From the NCBI GenBank assembly GCA_902385625.1, contig CABMGE010000007.1, positions 1,565 to 65,564 on the forward strand: a stretch of DNA of 64,000 nt. Reading direction: 5' to 3'. Numbering within the stretch: position 1 is the first letter of the stretch; every line of letters begins with the position of its first letter. Positions 2,228 through 61,003 of the stretch are shown in pieces. The notes beneath the pieces were generated by a model. That model saw only the letters and a list, made by a program, of their open reading frames with translations. It was not told the DNA's origin and searched no databases. This DNA comes from an uncultured archaeon (GTDB taxonomy: Archaea > Nanobdellota > Nanobdellia > Pacearchaeales > GW2011-AR1). Both the position numbers and the translations under genes were made by a program.

Positions 2228-3295
2228 TTGGCTGATAAATTAATGAAAAAGGGGTATCTAAATAGAAAGTCACAGGTGACTGTTTTTGTTATACTTGCAA
2301 TTGTTATAGTTATTGGTGTTGGAGCATTTTTATTCTTGAATAATAATAAAACCAATGGAACAAATGAAATCAATGCTCCTGTTTCTGATTATGTTCAATT
2401 ATGCATTGAAAAAACTGTGAATGAGGGTCTAAAGACAATTATGTTCCAGGGAGGATACTATAATTCTCCAGAAAAATCAACTGAGTATTTTTTTACTAAA
2501 ATTCCTTATTATTTTTATCTTGGAGAGGTTAATATTCCTGATAAGAAAACAATTGAAAATGAATTATCAGAGTATATTCAAAATGAACTTCCTTCTTGCA
2601 CTTCAAATCTTAGTGTTTTTGAAAATCAAGGTTATAAAGTTAATTTAGAAAAGCCTGCTGTTAAAACTTCCCTTGGAAAGATAATTAATATGAAAATAAA
2701 ATATCCAATACAAGTATCTTTTGAAGGAAAAACAAGTTATCTTAAGGATTTTAGTTATTCAAAGGAGTTTGATTTTGATAAAATATACAATATAATCAAT
2801 GAATTCTCAGTTGAACATCAGAAAAATCCAGATTTTGTTCCAATTGGTTATTTATCAATACTTGCAAAACAAAATGGATTTAGCTTTAACTTAAACTATA
2901 TCTCTGATGCTGAAGTTGTTTATTCTTTTATTTTTAATGATTTACTAAACAGAAATGAAAGTTTGTTTTATAATTTTGCAGGAAATTATAAATGGGAAAC
3001 TCCAAAACCTCTTGCAAAAGCTGTTCAAATTGAGCCTATTTTATACCAAACTGCTTATGCTGGGAAGGAATTTAATTATCAGGTAAGTGCAAAAGGAGAT
3101 AATCTCCAGTTTTATGACTATACTGGGCTTTTTGATATTGATAGTAATGGAAAAATTAAATTTACTCCAACAGCAGAACAAAGCGGAACTTATGAAATAT
3201 TAATTGAAGCAGAAGATGATTCTGGAAACTCGGATAATTCTATTATGACTCTTCATATAGAAAAAATAACAGAGGAGTTGAATATAACCAAATGA
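2228..3295 (+). CDS. N-terminally membrane-anchored protein with a C-terminal Ig-like (putative-Ig/cadherin-like) domain
   Basis: N-terminal transmembrane segment (VFVILAIVIVIGVGAFLFL). The C-terminal segment ...YQVSAKGDNLQFYDYTG...TYEILIEAEDDSGNSDNS resembles putative-Ig domains. Confidence 0.5.
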   Translation: MADKLMKKGYLNRKSQVTVFVILAIVIVIGVGAFLFLNNNKTNGTNEINAPVSDYVQLCIEKTVNEGLKTIMFQGGYYNSPEKSTEYFFTKIPYYFYLGEVNIPDKKTIENELSEYIQNELPSCTSNLSVFENQGYKVNLEKPAVKTSLGKIINMKIKYPIQVSFEGKTSYLKDFSYSKEFDFDKIYNIINEFSVEHQKNPDFVPIGYLSILAKQNGFSFNLNYISDAEVVYSFIFNDLLNRNESLFYNFAGNYKWETPKPLAKAVQIEPILYQTAYAGKEFNYQVSAKGDNLQFYDYTGLFDIDSNGKIKFTPTAEQSGTYEILIEAEDDSGNSDNSIMTLHIEKITEELNITK

Positions 3296-34743: not shown

Positions 34744-35193
34744 ATGAGAACTGAAATTTTATCAATGGTTCTACTTGCAAGTATACTACTTATGAGTGTA
34801 CTTGGCACTAGTATGATATCTGCTCTAGGAACTAGTGACTATAACGTAGGGGTTGGTGGCGCAGGTGCTCCTAGTTATTCTAGCGAGTCTGTGCAAAGTG
34901 CTAGTCAACAAAGTACAAGCATTGCAAGTCAACCAATGCAAAGTCCATATGAGGGCAGTCAACCTATGGAAAATCCATGTGATCAAGGAATGCAGCAAAC
35001 CCCTAATCAAGGAGTTCAACTGAGTCCTAATCAAGGAATTCAAATGAGTCCTAATTTAGGAGTTGGACAGCAAAGTCCTTATGATTCAGGAATGCAACAG
35101 AGTCCTTATGATCAGGGTATGAATGGTGCTTCTAGTCAAACTACCAGCAGCACATACTACTCTTATTCTAGTCAAAGCCAAAGCGCTTATTAG
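34744..35193 (+). CDS. secreted S/Q/P/Y-rich low-complexity protein (array paralog 1)
   Basis: Signal peptide MRTEILSMVLLASILLMSVLG shared with the other paralogs. The mature part carries repeated QSPYD/QGMQ units. Confidence 0.55.
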   Translation: MRTEILSMVLLASILLMSVLGTSMISALGTSDYNVGVGGAGAPSYSSESVQSASQQSTSIASQPMQSPYEGSQPMENPCDQGMQQTPNQGVQLSPNQGIQMSPNLGVGQQSPYDSGMQQSPYDQGMNGASSQTTSSTYYSYSSQSQSAY

Positions 35194-35210
35194 ATAAGTG
35201 GCTGATTTAA

Positions 35211-35263
35211 TGGGTTGCTGTAATTTGCATTTTAACATAAAAAAGCAACCCAATTTTAATTTA
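35211..35263 (+). terminator. GGGTTGC hairpin H1
   Basis: tgggttgct paired with agcaaccca, with a loop nearly identical to H0. Confidence 0.4.
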
Positions 35264-35371
35264 AAAAATATATCTTATAGGAAGTATAAAATAGATAGAA
35301 AGTTATTTTCAAGTGAAGTGAATTCATCAAAAATAATAAGATTTTTATTTAGACAGAATGATTATAATCGA

Positions 35372-35521
35372 ATTGTCTTCTTAAAAACTACTCTATTTTA
35401 TATATTTCATTTCATTATATAATACATCTTCTTGGTAAGTTTTCCGTTATAAAATTTTTAGATTTGACTTCTTTTATGCATTACCAAGAAAATTCTAAAT
35501 AAACACACAGGAGGTAAAAAA
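35372..35521 (+). promoter_or_regulatory. leader-repeat U2
   Basis: Conserved block as in U1. Confidence 0.5.
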
Positions 35522-35734
35522 ATGAGAATTGTAAATTTTTCAATATTATTACTTGCAAGTCTACTTGCGATAGGTTCAATAAACATTGCAAGTGTTTCTG
35601 CAGGATATAATTATGGAAACTATGGACATGGAGGCTATGGAGGACATGGTTATTATCCGGGTCATTATGGAGGATATGGACATGGAGGCTATGGAGGACA
35701 TGGCTATAGTGGTTATGGACACGGTTATAGATAA
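35522..35734 (+). CDS. secreted Gly/Tyr/His-rich peptide (array paralog 2)
   Basis: Shared signal peptide; the mature sequence is GYNYGNYGHGGYGGHGYYPGHYGGYGHGGYGGHGYSGYGHGYR. Confidence 0.55.
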   Translation: MRIVNFSILLLASLLAIGSINIASVSAGYNYGNYGHGGYGGHGYYPGHYGGYGHGGYGGHGYSGYGHGYR

Positions 35735-35763
35735 AAAGAGAATAATAGTTTCCTTAATTCTAA

Positions 35764-35809
35764 AATTAAGCTGTATGAAAAATATTTTTTTATATAATGC
35801 AGCTTAATT
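35764..35809 (+). terminator. alternative hairpin after paralog 2
   Basis: aattaagctgtat paired with atgcagcttaatt (12/13 bp) around an AT-rich loop. Confidence 0.35.
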
Positions 35810-35870
35810 TTTAAAAATCATTATATTCATTGGCTTAAAGATTCTTGGTAAAAGTTTTTTCTTTAGGAGA

Positions 35871-35934
35871 TTAACTTTTTTTAAGCCATTTTTTAGACAT
35901 CAAGAAAAATTAAATAAACACAGGAGGTAAAAAA
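35871..35934 (+). promoter_or_regulatory. leader-repeat U3 (diverged; retains ...caagaaaaattaaataaacacaggaggtaaaaaaATG)
   Basis: Partial similarity to U1, U2 and U4. Confidence 0.4.
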
Positions 35935-36222
35935 ATGAGAACTGCAATTTTTTCACTAGTGTTACTTACAAGCATACTGCTACTAGGTACATTTGGCATT
36001 AGCATAGTTTCTGCATATCCTTATGGAGGAATGCATAGCGGATGGGGAGGAATGCATGGTGGCTGGGGCGGACATGGTTTCGGTGATCGAGATGACTTTA
36101 GATTTAGATCATTTGGATTTAGGCCGTCCTTTGATCGCGACGACTTTAGATTTAGATCATTTGGATTTAACCCATTCTTTGATCGAGATGACTTTGCATA
36201 CAGACCTTATTGGGGTTGGTAA
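35935..36222 (+). CDS. secreted Gly/Trp/His plus DRDDFRFRSFGF-repeat peptide (array paralog 3)
   Basis: Shared signal peptide and a 48-nt internal tandem repeat (about 2.5 copies). Confidence 0.55.
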   Translation: MRTAIFSLVLLTSILLLGTFGISIVSAYPYGGMHSGWGGMHGGWGGHGFGDRDDFRFRSFGFRPSFDRDDFRFRSFGFNPFFDRDDFAYRPYWGW

Positions 36223-49365: not shown

Positions 49366-49518
49366 TGAAATCAAAAATTTCAATTACAGTTGACAAAGAA
49401 ATTCTGGATTTAATTGAAAATCTTACTGAATCTGGAAGATTTAGGAACAGAAGCCATGTTATTGAATATAGTATTAAGAAGTTTGTGAATGAAAACAACA
49501 AGGAGGAAGTAAAATGAT
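49366..49518 (+). CDS. unannotated 50-aa ribbon-helix-helix (CopG-like) protein
   Basis: MKSKISITVDKEILDLIENLTESGRFRNRSHVIEYSIKKF follows the beta-alpha-alpha RHH pattern. Its end overlaps the first kinase start (ATGA). Confidence 0.5.
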
Positions 49519-51340
49519 AGCGAGAGCAATATCACCTGAACTTGAAATAACACTTAATGCTGACGAATTATCTCAATTAAAAAGCAGAGGATATGAAGCA
49601 TTGCAAAAACTTGGAGAAGGTGCAACAAGAGATGCATATCTTGTCAGGTATACTCAAGGAAATGTTTCAAAACTAAGAGTCGTTAAGATACCAAAACTCG
49701 AAGTTGGAACTTTTATGTCCAAAGTTAATCGAAAGAAAAGAGATATTGATGCACAGGAAACAGATATTTCCAATAAATTACAGCACCCAAATGTTGCTGA
49801 AATTGTGGATAGTTTCAAACTCAATGGAAGAACAATTAATGTAGAGGCATTTTATGAAAAAGGAAGCGATCTTGAAACAATGGTCATACAGTCAGGACCT
49901 GTAAAGGATGAAGCTAGATTTGATAAAATTGCAGACCAGATTTTAGAGGGTGCATGTTATATTGAAGAAAAAGGATTTTTGCACAGAGATTATAAACCAT
50001 CAAATATAATTATCACTTCTTCAGGAGAAATAAAAATATCAGATCTGCAGCTCGCATGTCCTAGAAAAGAAGTACTTGAAAGCTCTGTTCCGACCAGAGG
50101 AGGAATGCCTTTTACAGATTCAGCTTTATTTTTTGGAATGTTTACTGGAAAACCCTACAAAGCAAATCCTGCAACAGAAGTTTATTCACTTGGTGCAAGT
50201 CTTTTATATGTACTCTCTGGAGAAAAATTTGATTATAAAATTGTTGAAGATCCAGAAGGTCGCGAGGTTATTGTTAATGATGAAAAATACAAAGTAAAAC
50301 TAATTGACTCTAATGGAGAAATGGATATGAATAAGTTTAATCTAATGCTTCATGAAAATAAACTAAAGAAAATGCTAGAAAAGGTTCCTAAACGATACAG
50401 GGCCATGATATTTGATTGTTTGTCAGTTGCTCCCCATAGAAAAATACATAATATTCTAGACTTAAGAGAAAGATTTAGGGAAACAAGGTCTCCAGTATTT
50501 CTTGAAGAATTCAAAAAAGGACTTCGGGCAATACCGATTACACTTGCAGCTGTTGGAACAATTACAGGAGCAATATTAATTGGTTATTATTTTCCAAGAG
50601 AAGAGACTCCTACTTTTGCAGAACTAATTGAAAAAGATAAGTATAGCCAGTTTAGTTTGGAAAAAATTGCAACTGGAACTGATAGAGATAACATGAGAAA
50701 AAGAGTTCTTTTATCCCCATATTTAGATGATGCAAAAAAAAGACTTCCTGAAATTGAAGAAAGAATTCCAAAGAAATTCTTATGGGGTTTTAAAGATGCC
50801 GAACTTATGGGAAAAAGACTAATGCTCTCATGGATTAGATCATGTTATTTAAACCAGGATGAAGCAAATAAATTTTATGAAAGTGAAGAGAAAAAATTAG
50901 AAAAAAGAGTTACATCAGTATTTGTTCCTGAAAAATTCATTACTACAAGGCAGATTAAGCATAGATTTCCAGGAAGCAGCTATCATGCAGACGATGATGG
51001 TATTTTTAGCGGAGTAATATATTTAAAACAGTTGATGAAACAAAATTCCAATGTTGCTGATTTATTTGCACATTATTTTTGTTCTGAAATTGATATAAAT
51101 AGCGCAATTTTGAATACAAGCAGTTCACAATATCTTCCTTATTCTGCTGAAGGAGTCCAACCAGGATATAATCAAGGATTAAATGAAACACAAAGAAAAC
51201 TTGTCAATACTGCACTTGCGCTTTATTTAATAACTGATGAAAAAGGCGAAATTCACTGGGATAAAGAATTTCTTTATGACTACGGTGAAAGAGCAAGAGT
51301 TTATGAGATGACACAGGGAGGCAGGTTTCCTGAATGGTAA
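49514..51340 (+). CDS. transmembrane eukaryotic-like Ser/Thr protein kinase 1 (DFG replaced by DLQ)
   Basis: GEGATRDAY G-loop, VVKIPK lysine, HRDYKPSNIII catalytic loop, and a TM segment near residue 345. Confidence 0.7.
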   Translation: MIARAISPELEITLNADELSQLKSRGYEALQKLGEGATRDAYLVRYTQGNVSKLRVVKIPKLEVGTFMSKVNRKKRDIDAQETDISNKLQHPNVAEIVDSFKLNGRTINVEAFYEKGSDLETMVIQSGPVKDEARFDKIADQILEGACYIEEKGFLHRDYKPSNIIITSSGEIKISDLQLACPRKEVLESSVPTRGGMPFTDSALFFGMFTGKPYKANPATEVYSLGASLLYVLSGEKFDYKIVEDPEGREVIVNDEKYKVKLIDSNGEMDMNKFNLMLHENKLKKMLEKVPKRYRAMIFDCLSVAPHRKIHNILDLRERFRETRSPVFLEEFKKGLRAIPITLAAVGTITGAILIGYYFPREETPTFAELIEKDKYSQFSLEKIATGTDRDNMRKRVLLSPYLDDAKKRLPEIEERIPKKFLWGFKDAELMGKRLMLSWIRSCYLNQDEANKFYESEEKKLEKRVTSVFVPEKFITTRQIKHRFPGSSYHADDDGIFSGVIYLKQLMKQNSNVADLFAHYFCSEIDINSAILNTSSSQYLPYSAEGVQPGYNQGLNETQRKLVNTALALYLITDEKGEIHWDKEFLYDYGERARVYEMTQGGRFPEW

Positions 51341-53076
51341 AAATGGCAGAACAAACTTCAACATTTATAGAATTTTTAAAAGAAAAACTTGGAAAAGAAC
51401 CTACATGGTATGATTATATGAAATTACTAAATGAAGAAATAGCAACTGTTCGAGACAGATTTGGGGAGCTTAAATATGGAGTTCCAAATATTGAACTTGA
51501 ACTAAAAATTGCTCTTGCAGGATTTTCTCCAACTGGAAGAGATATTGGAAATGGCAGATATGGTATTGTAAGTGAATATCTGGATAAATCAGGAAATTTA
51601 TGGGGAATAAAAAGGCTTATTTCAGATGAAGATGCAAAAAAAAGAAGAGAACAGAGAGGAATAACTGAACAGACAATGCTTGAAAAAGAAGCAATTTCAC
51701 TTGAAGCTTGCCAGCATAACATAGTTCCAAGAATTGTTGGTGATGGATTTATTGCAATGCCTTTATTTCCTAATGATTTAGAACAAATTCTTGAAGATGG
51801 AAAACCACTTGAAACAAAAAAGGCAATCCAGATATCAAAAAATATTCTTCATGGACTTGGTTATGCACATAAAGAATTAAGAAGAGTTCATTCAGACCTA
51901 AAGCCAGATAATATTCTACTTGATAAAAATGGAATTGCTTATATTACTGATTTTGGAATCTCAAGCGAAGCATCAATTTCAAGACAAAGTAAAGATCCAA
52001 GGGATAATTTTGGTTTTTTATATACAAGTTCTCCTGAAAGATTTCAAGAAGGAAACCATATGAATGAGAAATCAGATGTCTGGGCAGCTGGTGCTTTAAT
52101 TGGAAGACTTGTAACTGGAAAATATCCTCTTGAAAAATTAATTAATGGTTCTTCAAATCCAAAACAAAGAATAAATGAATCTACTCAAACAGAGACAAGT
52201 AGTATGCTTGAATCCTATTTTTCGCAGGTTCCAAGATGGTTAAATAGTGTTTTAAGAAAAGCTCTTTCATATGATCCAAATACAAGATTTGCAGATGCAA
52301 GTGAAATGGAACAGGCTTTTTTAAATGCAGAGGAAAATTTTATAAGTTCAAGTTCAAGACTCACAAAATGGGTTATTGGAACAATAGTTTCACTATCATT
52401 ATTAGGATCTATTACAGGCCTTTCAATTTATGAATCTAAATCAAAAAGACTTGAAGATCAGGTTCAAACACAAGAGCAAAAAATTGAATTAGGTGAAAAA
52501 ATAAAGATAATCAATTTATATTTGCAGAAGAAGGAAAATAATGTATCAATAAATCATCAAGTTACAACAAGAACAGAACATGCAGAAGAAGGAAAACTAC
52601 TTGGATATTTGGAAAGATTTGAAGATGAAAGAACAGCTTTTGCTGCATATATTAATCCAAGAGCAGTCTTTGCTGCAATAAAACTTGCAAATAGCGAAAG
52701 ATATGCAAAAATTGGAGAAACTCTTTGCAAAATTGATCCAAAATCATTTTATGAACTAGAAAGCAATGTTTCATATTGGAGATTTCCAGAGTCTCCTGTT
52801 TCATATGTTTGCATTGAAGAAAAAAGAAAACAAAATAAAGATGATGTTAAACTTGAATTCAAGTCTCTTGAAAGAGATTATTTGATAATGCAAAAACTTG
52901 AAGAGTGGTATAAACAAAGAAACAAGACTTATGAAGAAAAAAATGGAATTGGAATGTCCTGGCAATCATTTTATTCTTCGCTTGATGATTCTGACAGAAG
53001 AACATATGATGATCTTTTAAATTTGAGAGAAAGATTCTATCAAACTAAAATAAATGGAGGAAAAAATGGAAAGTAA
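51334..53076 (+). CDS. transmembrane Ser/Thr protein kinase 2 (alternative start 51343)
   Basis: HSDLKPDNILL and ITDFGIS motifs, and a TM segment near residue 345. Confidence 0.75.
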   Translation: MVKMAEQTSTFIEFLKEKLGKEPTWYDYMKLLNEEIATVRDRFGELKYGVPNIELELKIALAGFSPTGRDIGNGRYGIVSEYLDKSGNLWGIKRLISDEDAKKRREQRGITEQTMLEKEAISLEACQHNIVPRIVGDGFIAMPLFPNDLEQILEDGKPLETKKAIQISKNILHGLGYAHKELRRVHSDLKPDNILLDKNGIAYITDFGISSEASISRQSKDPRDNFGFLYTSSPERFQEGNHMNEKSDVWAAGALIGRLVTGKYPLEKLINGSSNPKQRINESTQTETSSMLESYFSQVPRWLNSVLRKALSYDPNTRFADASEMEQAFLNAEENFISSSSRLTKWVIGTIVSLSLLGSITGLSIYESKSKRLEDQVQTQEQKIELGEKIKIINLYLQKKENNVSINHQVTTRTEHAEEGKLLGYLERFEDERTAFAAYINPRAVFAAIKLANSERYAKIGETLCKIDPKSFYELESNVSYWRFPESPVSYVCIEEKRKQNKDDVKLEFKSLERDYLIMQKLEEWYKQRNKTYEEKNGIGMSWQSFYSSLDDSDRRTYDDLLNLRERFYQTKINGGKNGK

Positions 53077-55603
53077 AGACCCTGAAATGACTGATGAAGA
53101 GTGGAAGGAGTATCAAGATGCAATGAGAAATGAATACAAAAGGGATTTTGATCAATGGTTCCATTCTGGAGAACTAGATTCTTTAACAAACCAGGAAATA
53201 CTCTATAAACTTGCAACACAAGGAGGAACTATTGGAGATCCTATTGAAATAATAAATCACGAGGGAGTTTTTGAAAAAGATGTAGCAGAATGGAGAAAAC
53301 AGAATATAGAACAAAGCAAAAAAAGAGTTTTTGCAGCTTTTGAAGATTCGGTTCGAGAATTTAGAGATGAATCTCTTCCTGACCATACACTTCAAATTAT
53401 TGATGATCCGAAAAATCCTGAGCATAGAGTATTTGGAATCTTGCCTGAACAAGATCCTGAAAAAATATTCAGAAGAAGTGGATTTATTTCTATTGGAGGA
53501 GGAATAATGATTCCATTAGTTCCAAATACACCTGAACAATATCAGGAACTCGTATCAAAAGTTCTTGGAGACAAATACTTCAATATAGAACTTGCTTCCC
53601 AGGGAGCTCAGTCTTTAATTTTTAAAGGAAATTTTGCAGGTCCTGAAGGAAGACTCAGATCCATAAAAGTAGATAAAACAAAATTTGAAAGCTCAAATGC
53701 ACAAAAACTTGCAGACAAAGGTTATGGAACAAAAAGACATATTGAAACTCTTTCAACACTCCCTGATGCAGAAGATCATCATATTGTAGGACTTATAGAT
53801 TATTTTGACCTCACAAAAGATCATGGAGTTGCAATTTCAGTGCATCAGCACATAGAAGGCAAAACACTGGAAAAATTAATTTCTGAAGAAGGAAAGCTAT
53901 CGAGTACAAAAGTAAAGCAAATCTTTTCAGGAGTTTTAGACGCTGTTACTTATTATACAGGGGAAGGCTATGTTCATCGTGATTTAAATCCTGCAAATAT
54001 TCTTGTGAGGCCTAACTCTGAAGCATTTATCCTGGATTTTTGCAATTCTGGAAAAAGAGAGAAGCTTGAAGAAAAAGTACTTCCTACTGCTGGAGCCAGA
54101 AGAGTTATGGATCCTCTTTTAATTGAAAGAATTACAGGAGAGAAAAGAGCATATTCAGAATCTTCAGAAGTTTATTCACTTGGTCAGAATTTGTATTTTG
54201 CTTTAACTGGAAAATATTTTGCTTATGTTGATCCTGAAGAAGGAACAATAAAAAATGCAGAAACTGAAGAATCTTATTTAGATGAATCTGGAAAAATTAA
54301 TACTAAAAAATATCAAGAAAGTTTATACAAGGCAATAAACGATATCCACGGAGTTTCAAGAAGTTTTAAAAAATTAATTGGAAAATCCCTAAGTCTTGAA
54401 GATAAGACTAGATATAAAACAGTAGATGAATTTACAAAAGACTTTAAGAAAAAAGTCGGATTTGAAGATCCTGAATCTACAGAAAAAACAAAAAATCAAC
54501 TGTTTAATCGAAGAAGTTTAATAGGAATTCTTGCTGGAACAACAATTCTAGGATCTATTGGAGCTTTTGGGCTTGTTAAAGGTATTATGGATTCTAATGA
54601 TTTACAAGTACAGCAACTTGAAACTAAGATTGCAGAAGCTGAAAAATATGAAGTAGTTCCTGGCTGGGATGGTTTTACCCTTGGAGTTAATAATAATCTT
54701 TCAGAATTAAATCCAATTATTACTAAAGAAATCAAAGGAGATAAAAATAAATCACTTGAATATTTGTTCTATCCGGATCGCGGACTTGTTCCTTCATTTT
54801 TTACACTTAACAGAGGAGACACTATAACAATTTATCCAAAAGCCAAACAAGTTCCAAGATCTGGAAATAAAGAATATTTGGCTTTGCCTTCTTTTCCAGG
54901 ACAAGCTTATTTTGAAGGATGGGAACCGATTAAATTCTCTGTCGCAAATATTTCTAATGATCCAAGTCAGTATACTGACCATTATCCTGCTTTTAATATA
55001 TCTAGTCTAACTGTTCCAAAAGACATGCCTGATGGAGTCTATAATCTAATTATTGAATATTATGCATATGGAAATGAAGAAGAAAAGTATGGAAAAACTG
55101 CTTTGTCAACTGTCAAGTTTAGATATCCTGAAAAAGTTCTTTCAAGAAAAAGATTTCCGGTTGTAGTTGGAAATCCTGAATCTAAAATGCAGATAAGCAT
55201 GCTAAGAGTTAATTCATGTGAAGATCATGTTGGATTTGGAAAAGTTTATGATAATGTTTTCAAAAGTGTTGATACGGATGTTATAGACAGACTTGATATT
55301 TCTTTGATCGGAAAAGGTTTACTAAAATCAAATAAAAAATCAGAAGAATACTTTAATCCAAGTGGATCAGGACTTTGGCTTCCTTATCCAAACAAAGAGA
55401 GAAATGAACTCCTACAAATAGCTGCATACCATAATGGAAAAATTGCTACATTTGGTTATTTTCCAATTAAAACAGTCAATTATGGAAGAAGAAATGGAAA
55501 TCCTGATGGAGAATTATTGTATAACTGGAAATGGGATTTTTATGGTCCTGACCATGCTGAAAAACTAGTTGAATATAGGAAAGAATTATTTAAACAAAAA
55601 TAA
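53066..55603 (+). CDS. transmembrane Ser/Thr protein kinase 3 with a ~330-aa extracytoplasmic C-terminal domain
   Basis: VHRDLNPANILV and LDFCNSG motifs, a TM helix LIGILAGTTILGSIGAFGLV, and a GGAGGA Shine-Dalgarno sequence before the 53066 ATG. Confidence 0.7.
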   Translation: MESKDPEMTDEEWKEYQDAMRNEYKRDFDQWFHSGELDSLTNQEILYKLATQGGTIGDPIEIINHEGVFEKDVAEWRKQNIEQSKKRVFAAFEDSVREFRDESLPDHTLQIIDDPKNPEHRVFGILPEQDPEKIFRRSGFISIGGGIMIPLVPNTPEQYQELVSKVLGDKYFNIELASQGAQSLIFKGNFAGPEGRLRSIKVDKTKFESSNAQKLADKGYGTKRHIETLSTLPDAEDHHIVGLIDYFDLTKDHGVAISVHQHIEGKTLEKLISEEGKLSSTKVKQIFSGVLDAVTYYTGEGYVHRDLNPANILVRPNSEAFILDFCNSGKREKLEEKVLPTAGARRVMDPLLIERITGEKRAYSESSEVYSLGQNLYFALTGKYFAYVDPEEGTIKNAETEESYLDESGKINTKKYQESLYKAINDIHGVSRSFKKLIGKSLSLEDKTRYKTVDEFTKDFKKKVGFEDPESTEKTKNQLFNRRSLIGILAGTTILGSIGAFGLVKGIMDSNDLQVQQLETKIAEAEKYEVVPGWDGFTLGVNNNLSELNPIITKEIKGDKNKSLEYLFYPDRGLVPSFFTLNRGDTITIYPKAKQVPRSGNKEYLALPSFPGQAYFEGWEPIKFSVANISNDPSQYTDHYPAFNISSLTVPKDMPDGVYNLIIEYYAYGNEEEKYGKTALSTVKFRYPEKVLSRKRFPVVVGNPESKMQISMLRVNSCEDHVGFGKVYDNVFKSVDTDVIDRLDISLIGKGLLKSNKKSEEYFNPSGSGLWLPYPNKERNELLQIAAYHNGKIATFGYFPIKTVNYGRRNGNPDGELLYNWKWDFYGPDHAEKLVEYRKELFKQK

Positions 55604-55688: not shown

Positions 55689-56567
55689 TTAAACTGAAAT
55701 AGCCAGAAGATAATTATTCATTCTAATTATTGTCTCATTTATTTCATAGAGATAGAAACTAATTAGATCCTTGTTATCAATCAACTTCTTAATATGTTCA
55801 TATTTTTTAGCGAGTTTTAAGGAATCTTCTCGATTAAATTTGAATAAAAGGTCTTTAAACATATTTACAAAAGATCTTAATTCCTTTATTATTGGCAATA
55901 TTTCTTTAGGATATTTTTTTGTTTCTTTGAGTTCTCTTGCGATTTTCTTGTATATATCTCCTGTTTCTTCAAGGTGCGAGATTATTGAATATATCTGAGG
56001 AGTTTTATTATACTCAGTATATCCTTTTTTATTTAAAATTCTAAGAGAGAAGTTAACAAATTTATTTATACTTGTATCTGTTTCAATTACAGGATCCATA
56101 CTTTGTTTTTTATCAATTGCAATTTCAAGTTCTTCGGCCATAGAGTCAATTATTAAAAAAATCCTTCTTATTATGTCATCAATATTTTGATCTGATACTC
56201 CTGTAATATCTCTTACAGTAAAACTTTTTTGTGATTGCTTTATTATTTCAAATCCAATAAGTTCATTAATAACTCTTTTTTGAAAATCTTTTACTTCATC
56301 AGGTTCTGAAAAATTTATTTCAAGTTCATCATAACCTTTTATATAAAGAGAAATAAGAGTTCTGTTAACTAGTATTCCGAGGCCAGAAACATTAATTACA
56401 GCTTTTGATTTTTCTTTTGAAATCTTTTCATTACTTATGATTATTTGATTATCTTTTTCTTCAATATCTATTTCATCCCCTTTATCCAGATTATTTTTTC
56501 TTACCCATTTAGACGGCAGGCTAATCATCATTGTCGCTGCTCCTTGCTTTACAATTTTACGTTTCAT
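55689..56567 (-). CDS. AbrB/MazE-type DNA-binding domain protein with a PhoU-like C-terminal region
   Basis: N-terminal swapped-hairpin motif MISLPSKWVRKNNLDKGDEIDIE. Confidence 0.45.
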   Translation of the reverse strand: MKRKIVKQGAATMMISLPSKWVRKNNLDKGDEIDIEEKDNQIIISNEKISKEKSKAVINVSGLGILVNRTLISLYIKGYDELEINFSEPDEVKDFQKRVINELIGFEIIKQSQKSFTVRDITGVSDQNIDDIIRRIFLIIDSMAEELEIAIDKKQSMDPVIETDTSINKFVNFSLRILNKKGYTEYNKTPQIYSIISHLEETGDIYKKIARELKETKKYPKEILPIIKELRSFVNMFKDLLFKFNREDSLKLAKKYEHIKKLIDNKDLISFYLYEINETIIRMNNYLLAISV

Positions 56568-56682
56568 GTTAATTCTTATTACAGGAACTATTTAAACTTT
56601 TCTACTAAGTATATACATTTATACTAATATATATAGTATAATAAAAATGTTTAAATCTAATTTTTATGATATCTACTAACTA

Positions 56683-57081
56683 ATGACAACAAATAAAGAG
56701 AAACTCAAGGGAAAGATGATGAAAAAAATAAAAAAAATGATAGAGACAATAGTAATAAGCATGAAAGCCAGACGGATAAATCCGCTTGAGGCAGTAAGGC
56801 AAATAGAAGCAGCAATAGGCGGAATTACTGCTGTAAATTACAGAAAAGGTCTAACAATTCAAAATCATACAAGAAGAGAAAGTATAGACACTAGAGGACT
56901 TAGTAAAAAAGAATCAAAGATGGTTGATGAACTTGCAACACTTGCTTATTTACAAGCTCAAAGAAATGGAAGTAGAACCCCTGGCGAAGTTCATCTTGAC
57001 CATGGACTTAGTTCTAAGCATTATGCAAAACAATTCAAAGAATATGCAGGAGGGCTTGTAGAAAAATACGCAACTCCTTAA
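56683..57081 (+). CDS. hypothetical protein (operon gene 1)
   Basis: 132 aa; 1-nt gap to the next gene. Confidence 0.4.
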   Translation: MTTNKEKLKGKMMKKIKKMIETIVISMKARRINPLEAVRQIEAAIGGITAVNYRKGLTIQNHTRRESIDTRGLSKKESKMVDELATLAYLQAQRNGSRTPGEVHLDHGLSSKHYAKQFKEYAGGLVEKYATP

Positions 57082-57082
57082 A

Positions 57083-57358
57083 ATGGGATTTAGATATATT
57101 AGTTATAATGAAATAGAGCCTGAAGAAGCCAAGTATAACTTGGTAGGGCTTGATAGTGGAACTTATTTTGTGCCACTTTTTGAAGGAGATGTTGCTTCTG
57201 GGAATAAGAGAGAAAGACCAACAATTGCATTTAGACAAATAAGAGAAATATACAGTGAAGAAAGAGGAACTGGTTACCTGACTGTTTCTGTAAAAAATCC
57301 TAAAACACTTGAACAAATTTCCTTGCAAATGGCAAAGGATGCAATGGAGGATGAATAA
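57083..57358 (+). CDS. hypothetical protein (operon gene 2)
   Basis: 91 aa. Confidence 0.4.
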   Translation: MGFRYISYNEIEPEEAKYNLVGLDSGTYFVPLFEGDVASGNKRERPTIAFRQIREIYSEERGTGYLTVSVKNPKTLEQISLQMAKDAMEDE

Positions 57359-57359
57359 A

Positions 57360-57914
57360 ATGACAACAGGACTGCAAAAATATCAGGATTTAGTAACTGA
57401 AAACTGGACAAGATTTTCTGAAATACATACTCCTGAATCATGGTTTGTTTCACCTGATGTTTATTATACTGATAGTTTAAAAAAATTAAAAAAACAGTCA
57501 ATTAACGAAGTTTTAGGAGAAGAAATTATTACTCCAAAAGCAGTTGCACTTACTGGAATTCGAGACTTGGGATTATTTGTTCCAGGAATACTTGTTTCTG
57601 AAGGCGGAGGAGTTAAACTCGAACTTGAGAGCCAGGTTTTATCACTCATGACATATGCTCCTAAAAAAATAGAACTTCCTTCAGACCGAGGCATAAAAAG
57701 ACATTATCTTTTTTTACTCAGTGAAAAATCCTATGATAAGGAAAGATTATCTGCAACACAAGAGAAAAATCTTTCCAGATTTGTAGAAAAAGCAATTGAT
57801 TGTTCTATACTTTTCAAATCTAAAAGATTTCTTCAGGATTATGAATCTATTTCAGCAGCTATTCGAAAAAATGCAGATAAATATTCAAGAGAATTACAAG
57901 GAGCATTTAGGTAA
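57360..57914 (+). CDS. hypothetical protein (operon gene 3; start moved to the first ATG after the upstream stop)
   Basis: The ORF-track start at 57309 overlaps the previous gene. The ATG at 57360 follows the TAA directly. Confidence 0.4.
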   Translation: MTTGLQKYQDLVTENWTRFSEIHTPESWFVSPDVYYTDSLKKLKKQSINEVLGEEIITPKAVALTGIRDLGLFVPGILVSEGGGVKLELESQVLSLMTYAPKKIELPSDRGIKRHYLFLLSEKSYDKERLSATQEKNLSRFVEKAIDCSILFKSKRFLQDYESISAAIRKNADKYSRELQGAFR

Positions 57915-57915
57915 A

Positions 57916-58587
57916 ATGACTGAAGAAAATTCCACAACACCGCAAGAAAAACAATATTTTGAATTGGAAAAAAACTGGAATGAAGAATTAAGAGACTGGT
58001 ATAAAAAAGGAGAAAGATCAATGGAACAAATATCAAGAGAAACAGGAATTCCAAGACCTACACTTCGCGATTATATTGCCGGTGCAATAACTGACCTTGA
58101 TCGAGTTTCAGGTGAAAGAAGAATGCAGCTTTACAATCTAACTGGCCTTGAATTTTTTAAAGTTGAAGAAGGTTATGAAAAGAAGCCAAACCTGGTTCCT
58201 GGAAGAAAGAAAAAGAGATCCAAGATAGTTATTGAAAATAAAAATACAAGAAAAAAAGAAAGTATTATAATCCAAAATAATCTGACAGGAATTCAAAAAC
58301 TTGAAGCAGGACTTTTAAAATGCCAAGAGTATAAACCAAGTTATGAAAAAAGAGCAGATGCTGTAATGGAGTTACTTGATGTCTTGGCAGAAGAAATTGA
58401 TTATTACAGAAGTGCTAGTTCGAATGAAAGAAGTGTTCTTGTTGATAGACTTAAAAAAGATCCTGAAAGCTTTTCATATGTTACGCAGATTTTGAATGTT
58501 ATTTACCAAGGAAAGCAAATGGATGCATGGATGATGATGATTGAAGCTCCAAGCAAGATAAAAAGAATAAGAAGGGAGAGACAATGA
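57916..58587 (+). CDS. HTH-containing protein (operon gene 4)
   Basis: SMEQISRETGIPRPTLRDYIAG resembles a helix-turn-helix. The ATG at 57916 sits 1 nt after the upstream stop. Confidence 0.4.
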   Translation: MTEENSTTPQEKQYFELEKNWNEELRDWYKKGERSMEQISRETGIPRPTLRDYIAGAITDLDRVSGERRMQLYNLTGLEFFKVEEGYEKKPNLVPGRKKKRSKIVIENKNTRKKESIIIQNNLTGIQKLEAGLLKCQEYKPSYEKRADAVMELLDVLAEEIDYYRSASSNERSVLVDRLKKDPESFSYVTQILNVIYQGKQMDAWMMMIEAPSKIKRIRRERQ

Positions 58588-60188
58588 CGCCTGATAATTA
58601 TGTTCGTTTTCATGAGCAAGGACAGGGAAGAGCATTAATTGAACTTGCACGAGCATATCATCCACGAAGTGCAATTCGAGAACTAGTTACAAACAGCTTA
58701 GATGACAGAGTAAAAAAAGGTGTTACTGAAAATATCTATCTTACACTTGATCCTTATCAAAAAAGGATTGTTGTTTTTGATAATGGAAATGGAATTGCAG
58801 AGGAAAAATTATTTTCTCTTGCGACAAGTGTTGGTTTTTCAACTAAAGCAGGACAAGTTGATATGAGGGGTGAAAAAGCCCTTGGACTTCTTGCATTTGG
58901 TTCAATTGGAGATGTTATGCACATTATTACAAGGCCTTATGGAAGTGCTCAAAAAAATTATGGATATACTAGATGGGAGATAGATGATTCAAAGCACAGA
59001 ATACCCTTTGTAAATCAAGAACTTAGTCCTGATCAGGTAGAAGATTCATTTGGATCTTTTTCATATGGAACAAAGGTTGTAATTGACAGAGTTAATTCCC
59101 ATATATTTGAAAAAGTCTTAACTCCTGCAAATTTAAAAGATGGACTCAGATCACTTTACAATCCAGCGCTTAGAAAAGGAATTGCTAAAATTTATGTTGG
59201 AAAATATGATAAAAGATCAAAAAAAGTCAAATTTGAAGAGATAAAAGCTATAGAGTATGAAAAAGAATCTTCTCTTCTTTTAATAGATCAGACATTACAG
59301 ATTCCAATTAAAAATGAGGAGCAACCTGGAAATCTAGAAGTTTTATTATTTATTGATCCTGAAGCTTCGAGAGACAAGGTAGCAGTTTGCTCTAAAGATG
59401 TTCAGGTTTATGAATCAATAACTGAACTTACAGAATTTGCAAAACATCCGGTTTGGAGTTCTGGAAAAGTAACAGGTTATATCAATGATCATTTTAATAA
59501 ATTAATTCTTGGAAGAGATGGAATTGACAGAACAAGAAATGCATTCAAATCATGGTACTCAACTCTCGAAGAGATTGCTGAAAAACTCAGGCCAATTGTT
59601 GAAGAGAATAAGAAAAAAGGCAAAAAAGTAAAAGAACAAAAATATATTCAAGAGGCATTCAGAGCCCTTTCTGATGTATGGAGAGACCTTAGAAAAGAGG
59701 ACTCAGAAGAAGATTATATTGTAAATCCTGAAGGAGAAGAAATTATAAAGGTTAGAGAAGAAGAAAGAAAAGAAAGCGAGAAAAAAGGGAGCGAACATGA
59801 AAAATCAAAGGAAAAAGTTGTCAATCATGACAAAGAAGGAGAAAAAACAATAAGAGTTTCCAGAAAAAAAGTTCCTTTTGCATGCCCACTTCCACTTGAA
59901 TTTTCACAGCATGAAATGCATCTTAGAAGCAGATATGAACATCAGTTAGGAAGACTTTACATTAATTCACTACATCCAGACTATCAAGCAAGAGTTGATT
60001 TAACAGATCCTTCTCCATTTATCAGATATAATGTAGAAATACTTGCAAAAGAAGCTTCTAGTAATGAAATAAGAAAAATGAGTGAATCAAGAAGGCTAAT
60101 TGGAAATCCGAATGAAATAGTTGAAATGGCTATGCAAAGAGAAGAACAACTAAGATTCCTTGCACTTGAAAGACTTGGAATTATCTAA
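58584..60188 (+). CDS. GHKL-superfamily ATPase domain protein (operon gene 5)
   Basis: N-box ELVTNSLDD, G1-box VFDNGNGI, and a G2-like GLLAFGSIG. It has an ATGA overlap with gene 4. Confidence 0.6.
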   Translation: MTPDNYVRFHEQGQGRALIELARAYHPRSAIRELVTNSLDDRVKKGVTENIYLTLDPYQKRIVVFDNGNGIAEEKLFSLATSVGFSTKAGQVDMRGEKALGLLAFGSIGDVMHIITRPYGSAQKNYGYTRWEIDDSKHRIPFVNQELSPDQVEDSFGSFSYGTKVVIDRVNSHIFEKVLTPANLKDGLRSLYNPALRKGIAKIYVGKYDKRSKKVKFEEIKAIEYEKESSLLLIDQTLQIPIKNEEQPGNLEVLLFIDPEASRDKVAVCSKDVQVYESITELTEFAKHPVWSSGKVTGYINDHFNKLILGRDGIDRTRNAFKSWYSTLEEIAEKLRPIVEENKKKGKKVKEQKYIQEAFRALSDVWRDLRKEDSEEDYIVNPEGEEIIKVREEERKESEKKGSEHEKSKEKVVNHDKEGEKTIRVSRKKVPFACPLPLEFSQHEMHLRSRYEHQLGRLYINSLHPDYQARVDLTDPSPFIRYNVEILAKEASSNEIRKMSESRRLIGNPNEIVEMAMQREEQLRFLALERLGII

Positions 60189-60225
60189 TCATAGTTTAGG
60201 GGTGTATTGTAAGGAGGCAAATAAA

Positions 60226-60807
60226 ATGACAAGAAAATATAATACAAAAGCAGTTCAAAAACCACTCTCAGAAGTAGTTGCTGAAAGAAGGGGATTTTAT
60301 GAAAAAAGAATAGGAAAAGCTTTTGATTCTGTTTATGCAAGTGGAAATTTCCAATATATAGAGAAATTTGAAAATGTTATTCTTGGAATTACCCAAAGAG
60401 CAGTACAAGGAAATCTTGAAGGCATTGTCATAAAACCACTGGACTCTGCAATTGTAGTTGCAACTCAAGCAACTGGAAAACCAGTTTTAACAAAAGAAAC
60501 TTATGCAACTGCCAGGGGATCTGGAATGACAAATGAGCAGATAAAAAAAGCTTATAGGATTGAAAATAAGTTTTCTCTTGGAGGTTTTACTTCAGCTTAT
60601 GAAAAGAAAAAGAAAGTTCAAGAAGCAAAAGACCCAAGACCAAAGCTTACATATCAGCTTTTTGTTGCTGCAAGAGATGCTGGAGTTACTAACAAACAGA
60701 TAATACAACAGTACAAAAGAGAGTATCCAAGGCAAGTTAATGTTTTTAGCATGGAATATGTAAAAGCTAAACGAGCTGCAGCAAGTCCTACACCTCAAAC
60801 TCAATAG
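60226..60807 (+). CDS. hypothetical protein with an internal duplicated motif (operon gene 6)
   Basis: AAGGAGG Shine-Dalgarno sequence 8 nt upstream. The repeats ARGSGMTNEQIKKAY and ARDAGVTNKQIIQQY match each other. Confidence 0.45.
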   Translation: MTRKYNTKAVQKPLSEVVAERRGFYEKRIGKAFDSVYASGNFQYIEKFENVILGITQRAVQGNLEGIVIKPLDSAIVVATQATGKPVLTKETYATARGSGMTNEQIKKAYRIENKFSLGGFTSAYEKKKKVQEAKDPRPKLTYQLFVAARDAGVTNKQIIQQYKREYPRQVNVFSMEYVKAKRAAASPTPQTQ

Positions 60808-60981
60808 ATAAATATTTTTTATTTTTTTATTTTTTTTAAAAATCAATTTTTTTCTGAATGTTGTCTGTTTTAAGACAGCCTAGGTATTTAATAGTTAACG
60901 GCGTTAACTCTTTGTTTTTACAATTTTTTATAGATATGCCCCATTTTGGGGCAATATCTGTATGAAAAAGTCCTTGTGTTT

Positions 60982-61003
60982 ATCCACACCTTTTGGTGTG
61001 GAT
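60982..61003 (+). terminator. perfect 8-bp-stem hairpin (atccacac cttttg gtgtggat) followed by a T-run
   Basis: Palindrome read directly from the sequence. It lies between the six-gene operon and the sugar cluster. Confidence 0.4.

Follow-up and report, generated by a model that had tools for sequence, protein, structure and literature searches.

A rare, uncharacterised DPANN module conserving an HTH protein, a GHKL ATPase and a basic repeat protein

ATPases that couple a GHKL domain to an S5-type domain form a class that takes in MutL, Hsp90, MORC and the paraMORCs. The paraMORCs and restriction-associated GHKL proteins (Iyer, Abhiman & Aravind 2008, PMC2292703), which include the N-terminal GHKL domain of BbrUII/HgiDII as well as MzaB, are among the closest known systems to the locus described here. 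A second point of reference is the CapK/CapS pair, which joins CapK, an HTH-STAS-GHKL protein belonging to the small anti-sigma-kinase type, to the STAS-wHTH protein CapS (PMC13373217). Here, we describe a locus within a 64,000-nt stretch of archaeal DNA (the window) that centers on an ATPase of the MutL/Hsp90/MORC class.

The locus comprises six plus-strand open reading frames, g1 to g6, spanning 56683-60807. Both the open reading frame list and direct reading of the sequence place all six where the initial annotation had put them, and the junctions bear out the co-oriented, tightly coupled operon that it described. The g1/g2, g2/g3, and g3/g4 junctions each read TAAaATG, leaving a 1-nt gap; g4 and g5 overlap by ATGA (58584-58587); and the 37-nt spacer between g5 and g6 contains the previously noted AAGGAGG (60211-60217, plus strand), a Shine-Dalgarno-like motif 8 nt ahead of the ATG at 60226. 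Weaker motifs of this type lie upstream of g3 (GGAGGA), g4 (AAGGAGC), and g5 (GGGAG). Direct reading found nothing comparable ahead of g1, and a TTTAAAT box about 30 nt upstream of this gene fits a leaderless archaeal transcript. Spacing as tight as that of the operon (-25 to +5 nt) is found for 21 of the 50 same-strand neighbor pairs in the window, and three of the seven same-strand pairs with a gap of exactly 1 nt are those of g1-g4. Because tight junctions are common in this genome, the coupling is the mark of an ordinary operon and nothing exceptional.

The initial annotation went further and proposed an obligately co-expressed module. As a set, however, the six genes are not conserved: the full six-gene order was found in no other genome, and only g4-g5-g6 recurs. 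This core trio is found in the same order in about 20 distinct loci, including every complete DPANN locus examined except that of the closest relative, while g1, g2, and g3 fall outside the conserved unit. Across four archaeal GHKL subgroups, g4 lies directly upstream of g5 in nearly all loci, and in the DPANN subgroup g6 always comes next after g5. The g4-g5 pair also extends to mid- and high-GC contigs (L055, L057, L073, L080/81, L095, L101, and L102), some of them bacterial (Planctomycetota); the g4 matches in L101 and L102 (5.7e-33 and 7.3e-37) align over both domains. We take g4-g5-g6 to be the probable functional unit, with g4-g5 as its putative ancient core. In the closest relative (L015/L016/L020), g5 is 81% identical, g4 is replaced by an unrelated 99-amino-acid (aa) protein, only g5-g6 is shared with the window at the DNA level, and an integrase-like N-terminal fragment lies downstream. 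The family is rare: a search of 1.84 billion protein clusters yields just 197 g4 representatives.

The largest product, g5 (534 aa; 58584..60188, plus strand), carries a GHKL ATPase domain (residues 1-170) and an Hsp90-M/S5-like middle domain (about 200-315), followed by a long coiled-coil helix (319-373), a disordered linker (373-428), and a conserved C-terminal domain (436-530) that matches nothing known. A match to the Pfam family HATPase_c_3 (E 9e-11; 42.3 bits versus a cutoff of 25) confirms the Bergerat-fold assignment made from the sequence motifs. Structural searches with the AlphaFold2 (AF2) model (pLDDT 81.8) returned the Hsp90 N and M domains (Foldseek E 1e-15) and SMCHD1 (2e-13). 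Across 63 diverse members, the ATPase residues E33, N37, D66xGxG70, G96-E-K98, and G162-T163 are invariant, as are R311 in the middle domain and R448-S449/N461/H464/D466/Y467 in the C-terminal domain. With all ATP-binding and hydrolysis motifs intact, the ATPase looks active. On direct reading, motif III (RGEKALG) resembles the FRGEAL of MutL. The N-domain of the BbrUII/HgiDII restriction enzymes is matched at E 1e-9 to 2e-13 by four of the five g4-partnered, bacterial-type g5 members scanned, with weaker affinity in the remaining family members scanned; similarity to the PADLOC REase_II, MzaB, and TmtA models is likewise confined to the GHKL part of these proteins. Nothing reached threshold for Topo VI-B, MutL, HtpG, MORC, or CapK/CapS. 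Clear homology to a housekeeping complex, which had been named as grounds for rejecting a novel module, was not seen, the MutL, Topo VI-B, and HtpG models falling far under their cutoffs.

Its upstream partner, g4 (223 aa; 57916..58587, plus strand), consists of an Xre-type HTH (about residues 21-76), a disordered basic linker, and an all-helical C-terminal domain (about 125-212). The HTH is below threshold in Pfam (HTH_3, E 0.0045; 17.4 bits versus a cutoff of 23), and the AF2 model, of only moderate confidence as a whole (pLDDT 62.8), has a confident five-helix segment at residues 21-76 (pLDDT of about 84). This segment, together with a precomputed PF13560 match on the homologue P0037, supports the HTH suspected from the sequence. 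The C-terminal helical domain is novel and highly conserved (alignment A2), and g4 is a putative DNA-binding adaptor of g5. The third member of the unit, g6 (193 aa; 60226..60807, plus strand), pairs a conserved N-terminal domain (about residues 1-75) with two basic repeats of about 45 aa (alignment A3; consensus RP.LT..qY.kARd.GMTNeqI...F). A repeat HMM counts one to five tandem copies in homologues; g6 matches no Pfam family, and only faint HTH_68/SinI-type hints were seen.

The remaining genes are accessory. Both g1 (132 aa; 56683..57081, plus strand) and g3 (184 aa; 57360..57914, plus strand) are lineage restricted. The only homologue of g1 (L030:170-556; 50% identity, E 1e-42) heads a comparable plus-strand run upstream of the L030 g4-g5-g6 genes; because the alignment with it starts at residue 11, the true start may be Met-12 or Met-13. 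For g3, conservation is limited to the C-terminal part and to the closest relative, L015/L016/L020 (jackhmmer 2e-33), and hhalign found no significant similarity to the cluster 11 protein that lies upstream of g5 in expanded operons. The orphan g2 (91 aa; 57083..57358, plus strand) has no homologue in about 100 related loci, jackhmmer searches included, and its fit in the operon is the one argument for its being a real gene. Neither g1 nor g2 matches a family in Pfam, PADLOC, NCBIfam, or PHROGs.

Upstream, as previously proposed, lies an AbrB(SpoVT)/PhoU-type regulator gene (55689..56567, minus strand), divergent from the operon, whose homologue in L001 has MazE_antitoxin/PhoU Pfam matches. 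Genes of this family (cluster 4/6) adjoin the module in the window, L001, L014/L032, and L007/L023, four lineages in all, and the protein is a possible regulator of the operon. Within the divergent promoter region, an inverted repeat, TTATACTA-N7-TAGTATAA (56619..56641), is a candidate operator; it occurs nowhere else in the window, and no match arose in 100 shuffles. A search upstream of the module at other loci turned up no equivalent palindrome. Downstream of the g6 stop codon, direct reading reveals a T-rich tract (60815..60854, plus strand), probably an archaeal oligo-T terminator marking the operon end, in keeping with the general pattern of archaeal termination. Beyond it, folding predicts a cluster of four hairpins (60860..61003, plus strand) in a strongly structured 156-nt stretch (MFE -52 kcal/mol, z = -6.6). 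The last of these (60982-61003), flagged earlier as a strong palindrome, is real, with nine perfect pairs and a 4-nt loop, and is unique in the window. The cluster matches no Rfam family and has no conserved counterpart in L015, with which DNA similarity stops at about 60839.

What might such a module do? We tentatively favor a paraMORC-like accessory clamp, driven by ATP and targeted to DNA, that would act in conflict or foreign-DNA silencing, a reading to which we give somewhat less than an even chance. Here, g5 would be the motor, a GHKL+S5-class clamp that works as a dimer and is operated by ATP, and g4 the adaptor, its HTH on DNA and its helical C-terminal domain docked on g5. We infer that in DPANN archaea g6 would contact DNA at a second point, with its N-terminal domain part of the complex and its one to five basic repeats on nucleic acid; g1-g3 would be additions specific to a lineage and transcribed together with the core. 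A role in genetic conflict would be the likeliest, the module sensing foreign or mobile DNA, clamping it, or silencing it, and a similar role has been proposed for the restriction-associated paraMORCs (PMC2292703).

Core conservation, intact ATPase motifs, restriction/MutL-type GHKL affinity, and patchy rarity all speak for the clamp, as do conflict-type neighbors at some loci: an N6/N4 methyltransferase and a faint NucS-like protein (L104), a Mu-like capsid gene and an integrase (L102), PIN and ParE/RelB pairs (L101), and a HepT/MNT pair (L017). Flanking genes differ from locus to locus, and the accessory genes vary, as does the g6 repeat number, a variability typical of conflict systems. The defense or mobile-element role suggested initially remains a plausible hypothesis. 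Counting against the clamp, no nuclease, TIR, toxin, or other effector is recognizable in g4-g5-g6, and collections of phage, plasmid, and viral sequences, IMG/VR contigs included, yielded no homologue. The six proteins match no PADLOC model, and the earlier statement that they fit no described system holds across PADLOC, Pfam, NCBIfam, and PHROGs. Most DPANN loci lie among ordinary genes and outside any recognizable defense island.

The less likely but most serious alternative casts g4-g5-g6 as a resident factor of chromatin or transcription, a MORC/SMCHD1-like ATPase that compacts DNA or regulates genes of the host chromosome, rather than as an immune system. The missing effector, two putative DNA-binding partners (g4 and g6), the SMCHD1 ATPase module among the best structural matches, and retention in small DPANN genomes all suit it. 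Such a factor might respond to neighboring Ser/Thr-kinase and AbrB/PhoU signaling genes, a context kept upstream in the window, L001, and L014/L032 even though g5 is only about 45% identical, which looks like long-term chromosomal residence and argues against the clamp; PhoU, FHA, and response-regulator genes also lie near a Planctomycetota homologue. However, this link is restricted to about 4 of about 20 lineages and may reflect no more than synteny, contexts are otherwise variable, the family is patchy as well as very rare, the closest relative has another protein in place of g4, and no operator motif is shared upstream of the module across loci.

We consider it improbable that g5 is a chaperone standing in for Hsp90, with g4 and g6 as co-chaperones or regulators. 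Archaea, to our knowledge, generally lack Hsp90, the top Foldseek matches are full-length Hsp90/TRAP1/GRP94 N and M domains over about 400 aligned columns, and the bacterial L101 carries HSP20-Lon-g4-g5 on one strand; yet this heat-shock context is a single case, the NCBIfam models for HtpG and HSP90 reach 12-27 bits where their cutoffs are 371-455, and topoisomerase, rIIA, and SMCHD1 GHKLs match almost as well. The MutL-like motif III, an obligatory HTH partner, the basic repeats of g6, and the rarity of the family also sit badly with a general chaperone. Slightly less credible still is a CapK/CapS-like kinase/repressor pair, in which g5 modifies g4 upon a signal such as DNA damage and switches on adjacent cargo (g1-g3, g6, or variable neighbors). 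CapK/CapS is a precedent for adjacent HTH and GHKL proteins conserved as a pair beside variable genes (PMC13373217), but g5, at 534 aa, combines its GHKL with a transducer-like domain, the predicted all-helical g4 C-terminal domain has no STAS, and at many loci unrelated genes surround the trio, leaving no consistent cargo. That g5 is a housekeeping Topo VI-B or MutL enzyme is scarcely conceivable: an identical protein (P0001) is named "Type 2 DNA topoisomerase 6 subunit B" at NCBI and the best PDB sequence matches are Topo VI-B and MLH1 (E 1.5e-4 to 8e-4, only the first ~100 residues), but membership in either family is refuted by scores far below cutoffs (TIGR01052 top6b, 24.3 bits versus 380.7; PRK04184, 27.7 versus 274; TIGR00585 mutL, 24.3 versus 180), the operon has no Top6A/Toprim partner, direct reading shows no MutL endonuclease motif, and the C-terminal half is unrelated to both.

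Set beside the described systems, g5 shares with Topo VI-B the GHKL fold of its first ~100 residues, but it falls short of the two curated models more than 10-fold and about 10-fold in bit score, respectively, with no curated match past this point and no Top6A. The CapK/CapS pair likewise joins adjacent GHKL and HTH proteins (PMC13373217), whereas g4-g5 lacks STAS and has a GHKL of another class. Hsp90/HtpG/TRAP1 and SMCHD1 are the best structural matches to the g5 ATPase and middle domains, and g5 likely shares their dimeric-clamp logic; identity is only 12-16%, curated HSP90 models score below cutoff, and the C-terminal region, motif III, and DNA-binding-type partners differ. The MORC-specific motif is absent from g5. 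The module differs from the paraMORCs and restriction-associated GHKLs in having no helicase, methylase, or nuclease, in its dedicated Xre-HTH partner and, in DPANN, tandem-repeat protein, and in scores far below cutoffs (e.g., 49.7 bits versus 550). Yet it is to these that bacterial g5 members show the best subthreshold affinity among curated models, and one locus adjoins a DNA methyltransferase. Like the paraMORCs, g5 has an N-terminal GHKL domain with all ATP motifs, a conserved basic residue in the transducer-type domain that follows, a family-specific C-terminal extension, and a sporadic distribution over bacteria and archaea.

The six + strand genes g1 to g6 (56683-57081, 57083-57358, 57360-57914, 57916-58587, 58584-60188 and 60226-60807) are all present as the initial annotation described them, and the coupled operon that it proposed is real. 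Direct reading of the sequence places a TAAaATG junction at g1/g2, g2/g3 and g3/g4 and an ATGA overlap between g4 and g5, followed by a 37-nt spacer between g5 and g6 in which AAGGAGG lies 8 nt 5' of the g6 start codon. Motifs resembling GGAGG are likewise present ahead of g3, g4 and g5. The upstream sequence of g1 carries no such motif and has a TTTAAAT box ~30 nt 5' of the gene, a combination that suggests a leaderless transcript. A T-rich tract lies 3' of g6. Because such packing is common in the genome, we regard g1 to g6 as a normal compact operon with no statistical oddity: equally tight spacing is found in 21 of the window's 50 same-strand neighbour pairs, and a 1-nt gap in seven of these 50, three of them in the operon itself.

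The window (G+C ~30%) has a gene content that looks chromosomal for a small archaeon, with ribosomal-protein-like genes, a RecQ-like helicase, an Mrp-like membrane complex and one tRNA. At 34744-36222 (+), several small ORFs combine a signal-peptide-like N-terminus with a low-complexity tail rich in Gly, His, Tyr and Trp, e.g., GGYGGHGYYPGHYG and GGMHSGWGGMHGGWGGHGFG. Upstream of the operon, an AbrB/PhoU gene (55689-56567, - strand) is divergent from g1, and directly upstream of it lie three tandem paralogous genes (49514-55603, +; 608, 580 and 849 aa) that cluster with a protein bearing Pkinase/RIO1 Pfam matches from L001, one of the related loci that we fetched. The divergent promoter region contains an inverted repeat, TTATACTA-N7-TAGTATAA (56619-56641), which occurs once in the window and was matched in 0 of 100 shuffles; as a shared operator 5' of the module, it has no counterpart at the other loci compared. 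Within the 230-nt spacer 3' of g6 are four consecutive hairpins (60860-61003; minimum free energy -52 kcal/mol, z -6.6). This cluster is single-copy, is not conserved in the closest relative and matches no Rfam family; it may represent a terminator array or a small RNA.

Among the six proteins, only g5 (534 aa) exceeds a curated cut-off, its match to Pfam HATPase_c_3 reaching 42.3 bits where 25 are required. We judged membership of the GHKL ATPases by motifs I (ExxxN), II (DxGxG), III (G-rich) and IV (GT) together with a Bergerat fold, and the initial assignment of g5 to this group is borne out by the Pfam match, the invariant motifs and an AlphaFold2 (AF2) model (pLDDT 81.8) that matches GHKL structures. 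Across 63 diverse family members, the residues of the ATP motifs (E33, N37, D66xGxG70, G96-E-K, G101 and G162-T163) are invariant, and D40, G298, G310-R311 and, in the C-terminal domain, R448-S449, N461, H464, D466, Y467 and Y482 are invariant or nearly so. Given these conserved catalytic residues, g5 should bind and hydrolyze ATP. R311 is a candidate basic finger of the transducer domain, by analogy with MutL, GyrB and Hsp90 (PMC2292703). In the AF2 model, a GHKL domain (residues 1-170) is followed by an α/β middle domain (~200-315), a 55-residue helix, a disordered linker, which carries a PPGPG motif in most homologues, and a small β/α C-terminal domain. The best PDB folds in a Foldseek search are the N and M domains of the Hsp90 family (E 1e-15), with ~400 aligned columns and a query-normalized TM of 0.44 against Hsc82, Hsp90 and TRAP1; the SMCHD1 ATPase module is likewise among the best matches, and viral rIIA, Hsp90 and topoisomerase GHKLs give similar fold scores. 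A profile of the C-terminal domain matched nothing significant in the PDB.

Public databases contain proteins identical to g4 and g5, both from a 91.6-kb contig of an uncultured archaeon. The one identical to g5 is named "Type 2 DNA topoisomerase 6 subunit B," an identity that would entail a curated score over the full length (GHKL, H2TH and transducer) and a Top6A (Toprim/5Y-CAP) subunit, usually encoded by an adjacent gene. The curated Top6B models give only 24.3 bits against 380.7 (TIGR01052) and 27.7 against 274 (PRK04184), covering residues 30-103 alone, and no Top6A/Toprim partner is matched by Pfam in g1 to g4 or g6 or found in ~20 related loci. Since scores of 24 to 28 bits fall so far short of cut-offs of 274 to 381, the public name reads too much into the GHKL domain; it is wrong for g5 and could lead surveys of where Topo VI occurs astray. 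Clear homology to a housekeeping complex, MutL-like or chaperone, which the initial annotation had named as speaking against its reading, was likewise not found, as the curated cut-offs were missed. For MutL, TIGR00585 reaches 24.3 bits against 180 over residues 27-76 only, and the g5 C-terminal profile finds no MutL dimerization/endonuclease domain in the PDB; by reading, motif III of g5 (RGEKALG) resembles FRGEAL of MutL. For Hsp90/HtpG, PRK14083 gives 12.9 bits against 455, with bacterial relatives of g5 reaching at most 26.9 bits, and the likeness of the N-terminal ATPase and middle domains is one of fold only, common to SMCHD1, rIIA and type II topoisomerase GHKLs. The matches of the curated Top6B, MutL and HSP90 models to g5 are all confined to ~residues 27-118.

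The remaining core proteins are more divergent. In g4 (223 aa), an HTH segment confidently modelled as helical (residues 21-76) is joined by a basic, disordered linker to a C-terminal domain that is helical and highly conserved. Its HTH_3 score (17.4 bits, E 0.0045) is below the cut-off of 23, and PF13560 is matched by one g4 homologue, P0037. Taking a five-helix Xre/cI-type DNA-binding domain as the criterion for an Xre-type protein, we find four to five short helices in the segment (AF2 pLDDT ~84) and a weak profile match to the Xre-type "LexA" repressor 2kpj (E 0.04); the g4 profile has no significant match in the PDB. No g4-g5 fusion, sought as evidence of interaction, is present among the best 150 matches listed to the g4 profile. 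Some distant matches to this profile carry five to eight tandem copies of the N-terminal HTH segment (P0125, 861 aa; P0189, 632 aa; P0174, 549 aa; and others), which suggests that other proteins, too, contain the g4 HTH in repeat arrays. g6 (193 aa) opens with a conserved N-terminal domain, after which a basic repeat of ~45 aa, RP.LT..qY.kARd.GMTNeqI..kF, is present in two copies in the window and one to five among homologues; its HTH-type hints are faint.

To place these genes in a wider context, we clustered ORFs across ~100 fetched loci. g5 has ~30 close cluster representatives, and every one with a named source comes from a Pacearchaeota, Woesearchaeota or Nanoarchaeota MAG; a metagenome scan recovered 273 relatives. 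The order g4-g5-g6 is kept in ~20 distinct DPANN loci. The g4-g5 pair also occurs in three other low-G+C GHKL subgroups and in several mid- or high-G+C loci (L055, L057, L073, L080/81, L095, L101 and L102), with both g4 domains aligning in L101 (5.7e-33) and L102 (7.3e-37). The high-G+C members have relatives assigned by name to Planctomycetota, and one large high-G+C GHKL subgroup is standalone, with no detectable g4. The g4 family is rare: an exhaustive HMMER search of 1.84 billion 50%-identity clusters yielded 197 representatives at E ≤ 1e-3 and 18 at E ≤ 1e-30.

The outer genes are shared far less widely. g1 is 50% identical to a protein that heads an equivalent gene run at L030, where the small ORFs show no homology to g2 or g3; g2 has no homologue among the ~100 loci; and g3 is kept only in the closest relative (L015/L016/L020). 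There, g5 is 81% identical, DNA similarity to the window is limited to g5-g6, and g4 gives way (~250-550) to an unrelated protein of 99 aa, part of which is hydrophobic and resembles a transmembrane segment. Downstream of its g6, an ORF (3133-3726) with sub-threshold phage-integrase N-terminal SAM-like matches occupies the position of a PIG-L gene in the window. Two lineages (L001 5681-13844 and L014 6273-12285, the latter grouped with L032) have expanded operons of ~8 to 10 coupled genes, in which additional unknown genes lie among g5, a long g6 with three to five repeats, and g4, in an order unlike that of the compact trio. The extra proteins (L001 and L014) have no Pfam matches, and the gene upstream of g5 in these operons, which shares a few motifs with g3 by eye, is not significantly related to it (hhalign E 0.49). 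Because g1 and g3 are each narrowly shared, g2 is an orphan and the closest relative shares g5-g6, the full set of six genes elaborates, in a lineage-specific way, on a conserved core. Thus, the proposal that all six genes constitute one module holds for the operon and not for the conserved unit, which comprises only two to three genes, g4-g5(-g6), and is a distinct GHKL+S5 ATPase module.

The flanks of the module vary widely, from GluRS/Elp3/gyrB to acetyltransferases/MscS/SET to pilin-like genes. Individual loci have a methyltransferase and a faint NucS-like protein adjoining the g4-g5 pair (L104), a Mu-like capsid gene and an integrase (L102), PIN and ParE/RelB pairs (L101) or a HepT/MNT pair (L017). 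At least five lineages encode, no more than a few kb from the module, a conserved ~460-510-aa protein without a Pfam match (L017 3421-4791, L049 4752-6254, L003 2436-3935, L013 13322-14818 and L025 810-2348), often paired with a divergent ~110-127-aa protein; the window has no homologue of either. Pfam searches of the variable neighbours returned only HEAT repeats, a pilin/discoidin protein, a nucleotidyltransferase domain and a sugar-isomerase/AP-endonuclease-type TIM-barrel domain, none functionally informative. No relatives that would point to a viral or plasmid origin were found in IMG/VR, INPHARED phages or PLSDB plasmids, the last two queried with both archaeal and bacterial sequences. 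The sole PHROGs match is phrog_6203, a GHKL family without known function, and BFVD fold matches are to generic GHKLs (rIIA, Hsp90 and topoisomerases). Consistent with the view that the gene set fits no described system, a PADLOC-DB v2 scan of the six proteins gave no match better than E 0.0058 (generic HTH, mad1), and nothing in NCBIfam, PHROGs or PADLOC exceeded threshold for any of g1 to g6; more distant GHKL relatives match the PADLOC models REase_II, TmtA and MzaB over the GHKL segment only.

GHKL+S5 ATPases, which include MutL, gyrase/Topo VI-B, Hsp90 and MORC, are ATP-driven clamps. The best-supported model of the module is a DNA-directed GHKL clamp in which g4 would serve as an HTH adaptor directing g5 to DNA and g6, in DPANN archaea, as a putative tandem-repeat DNA binder. 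We tentatively favour a role in conflict or foreign-DNA control because of the rarity and patchiness of the module, its variable accessory genes and its occasional restriction-modification, toxin-antitoxin or prophage neighbours. A host chromatin or regulatory role is still in play: the module has no recognizable effector, and its synteny with upstream protein kinase(s) and a divergent AbrB/PhoU gene is conserved among the window, L001 and L014/L032 at just ~45% g5 identity, with kinase paralogues preceding the module in L001 and L014/L032 and the AbrB/PhoU gene lying downstream of it in L007/L023. This kept context suggests stable residence or a regulatory link. The lack of relatives in IMG/VR, INPHARED and PLSDB and the heat-shock setting of one bacterial locus also weigh against the conflict reading. 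A chaperone role for g5 draws only on its Hsp90 fold rank and on one bacterial locus, the sole heat-shock context found, where HSP20, Lon protease, a 152-aa g4 homologue and the GHKL gene lie in a row on one strand (L101 3693-8623).

DPANN archaea have reduced genomes that retain few accessory systems, and their biology is hard to probe. To our knowledge, prokaryotic MORC-like members come almost solely from predicted restriction-modification contexts. The module is a distinct, compact version, with a dedicated HTH partner and no nuclease, concentrated in DPANN archaea. Were it a host nucleoid factor, it would be relevant to DPANN chromosome organization; were it to act on foreign DNA, it would add a nuclease-free mechanism to the known prokaryotic immune systems and offer a simple prokaryotic model for MORC/SMCHD1-type silencing.

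Among described systems, the recently reported pair of CapK, an HTH-STAS-GHKL kinase of the anti-sigma type, and CapS, a STAS-wHTH protein (PMC13373217), is an instructive analogy with a different domain architecture: the g4 C-terminal domain is predicted to be all-helical with no STAS, and g5 has a large transducer-type domain and neither HTH nor STAS. The GhXhhpXXRhl motif is specific to MORCs and unites their prokaryotic and eukaryotic members (PMC2292703). By reading, it is absent from the g5 family, whose alignment shows GEKALGLLAFGSLG..MHIISR in this region, and MORC3 is a weak PDB match to g5 (E 1e-3, residues 26-101). The nearest kind are the restriction-associated paraMORCs, a loose grouping defined by a GHKL domain, an S5-type domain in which a basic residue is conserved and a C-terminal extension peculiar to the family. 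g4-g5(-g6) differs from them in lacking the MORC motif and their methylase, helicase and nuclease partners; of the paraMORC neighbourhood (methylases, SF-II helicases and endonucleases), a methyltransferase lies beside the pair in L104 only and in none of the DPANN loci. We entertain one further reading, which we consider rather unlikely: that g4-g5(-g6) is an unrecognized class of GHKL machine, DNA-directed and nuclease-free, with which ultra-small DPANN archaea and a few bacteria silence or exclude foreign DNA or remodel the nucleoid. The HTH adaptor and the tandem-repeat DNA binder would then load a MutL/Hsp90-like ATP clamp onto DNA, and the module would correspond in function to the MORC/SMCHD1 silencing of eukaryotes, as a prokaryotic version that needs no restriction-modification partner.
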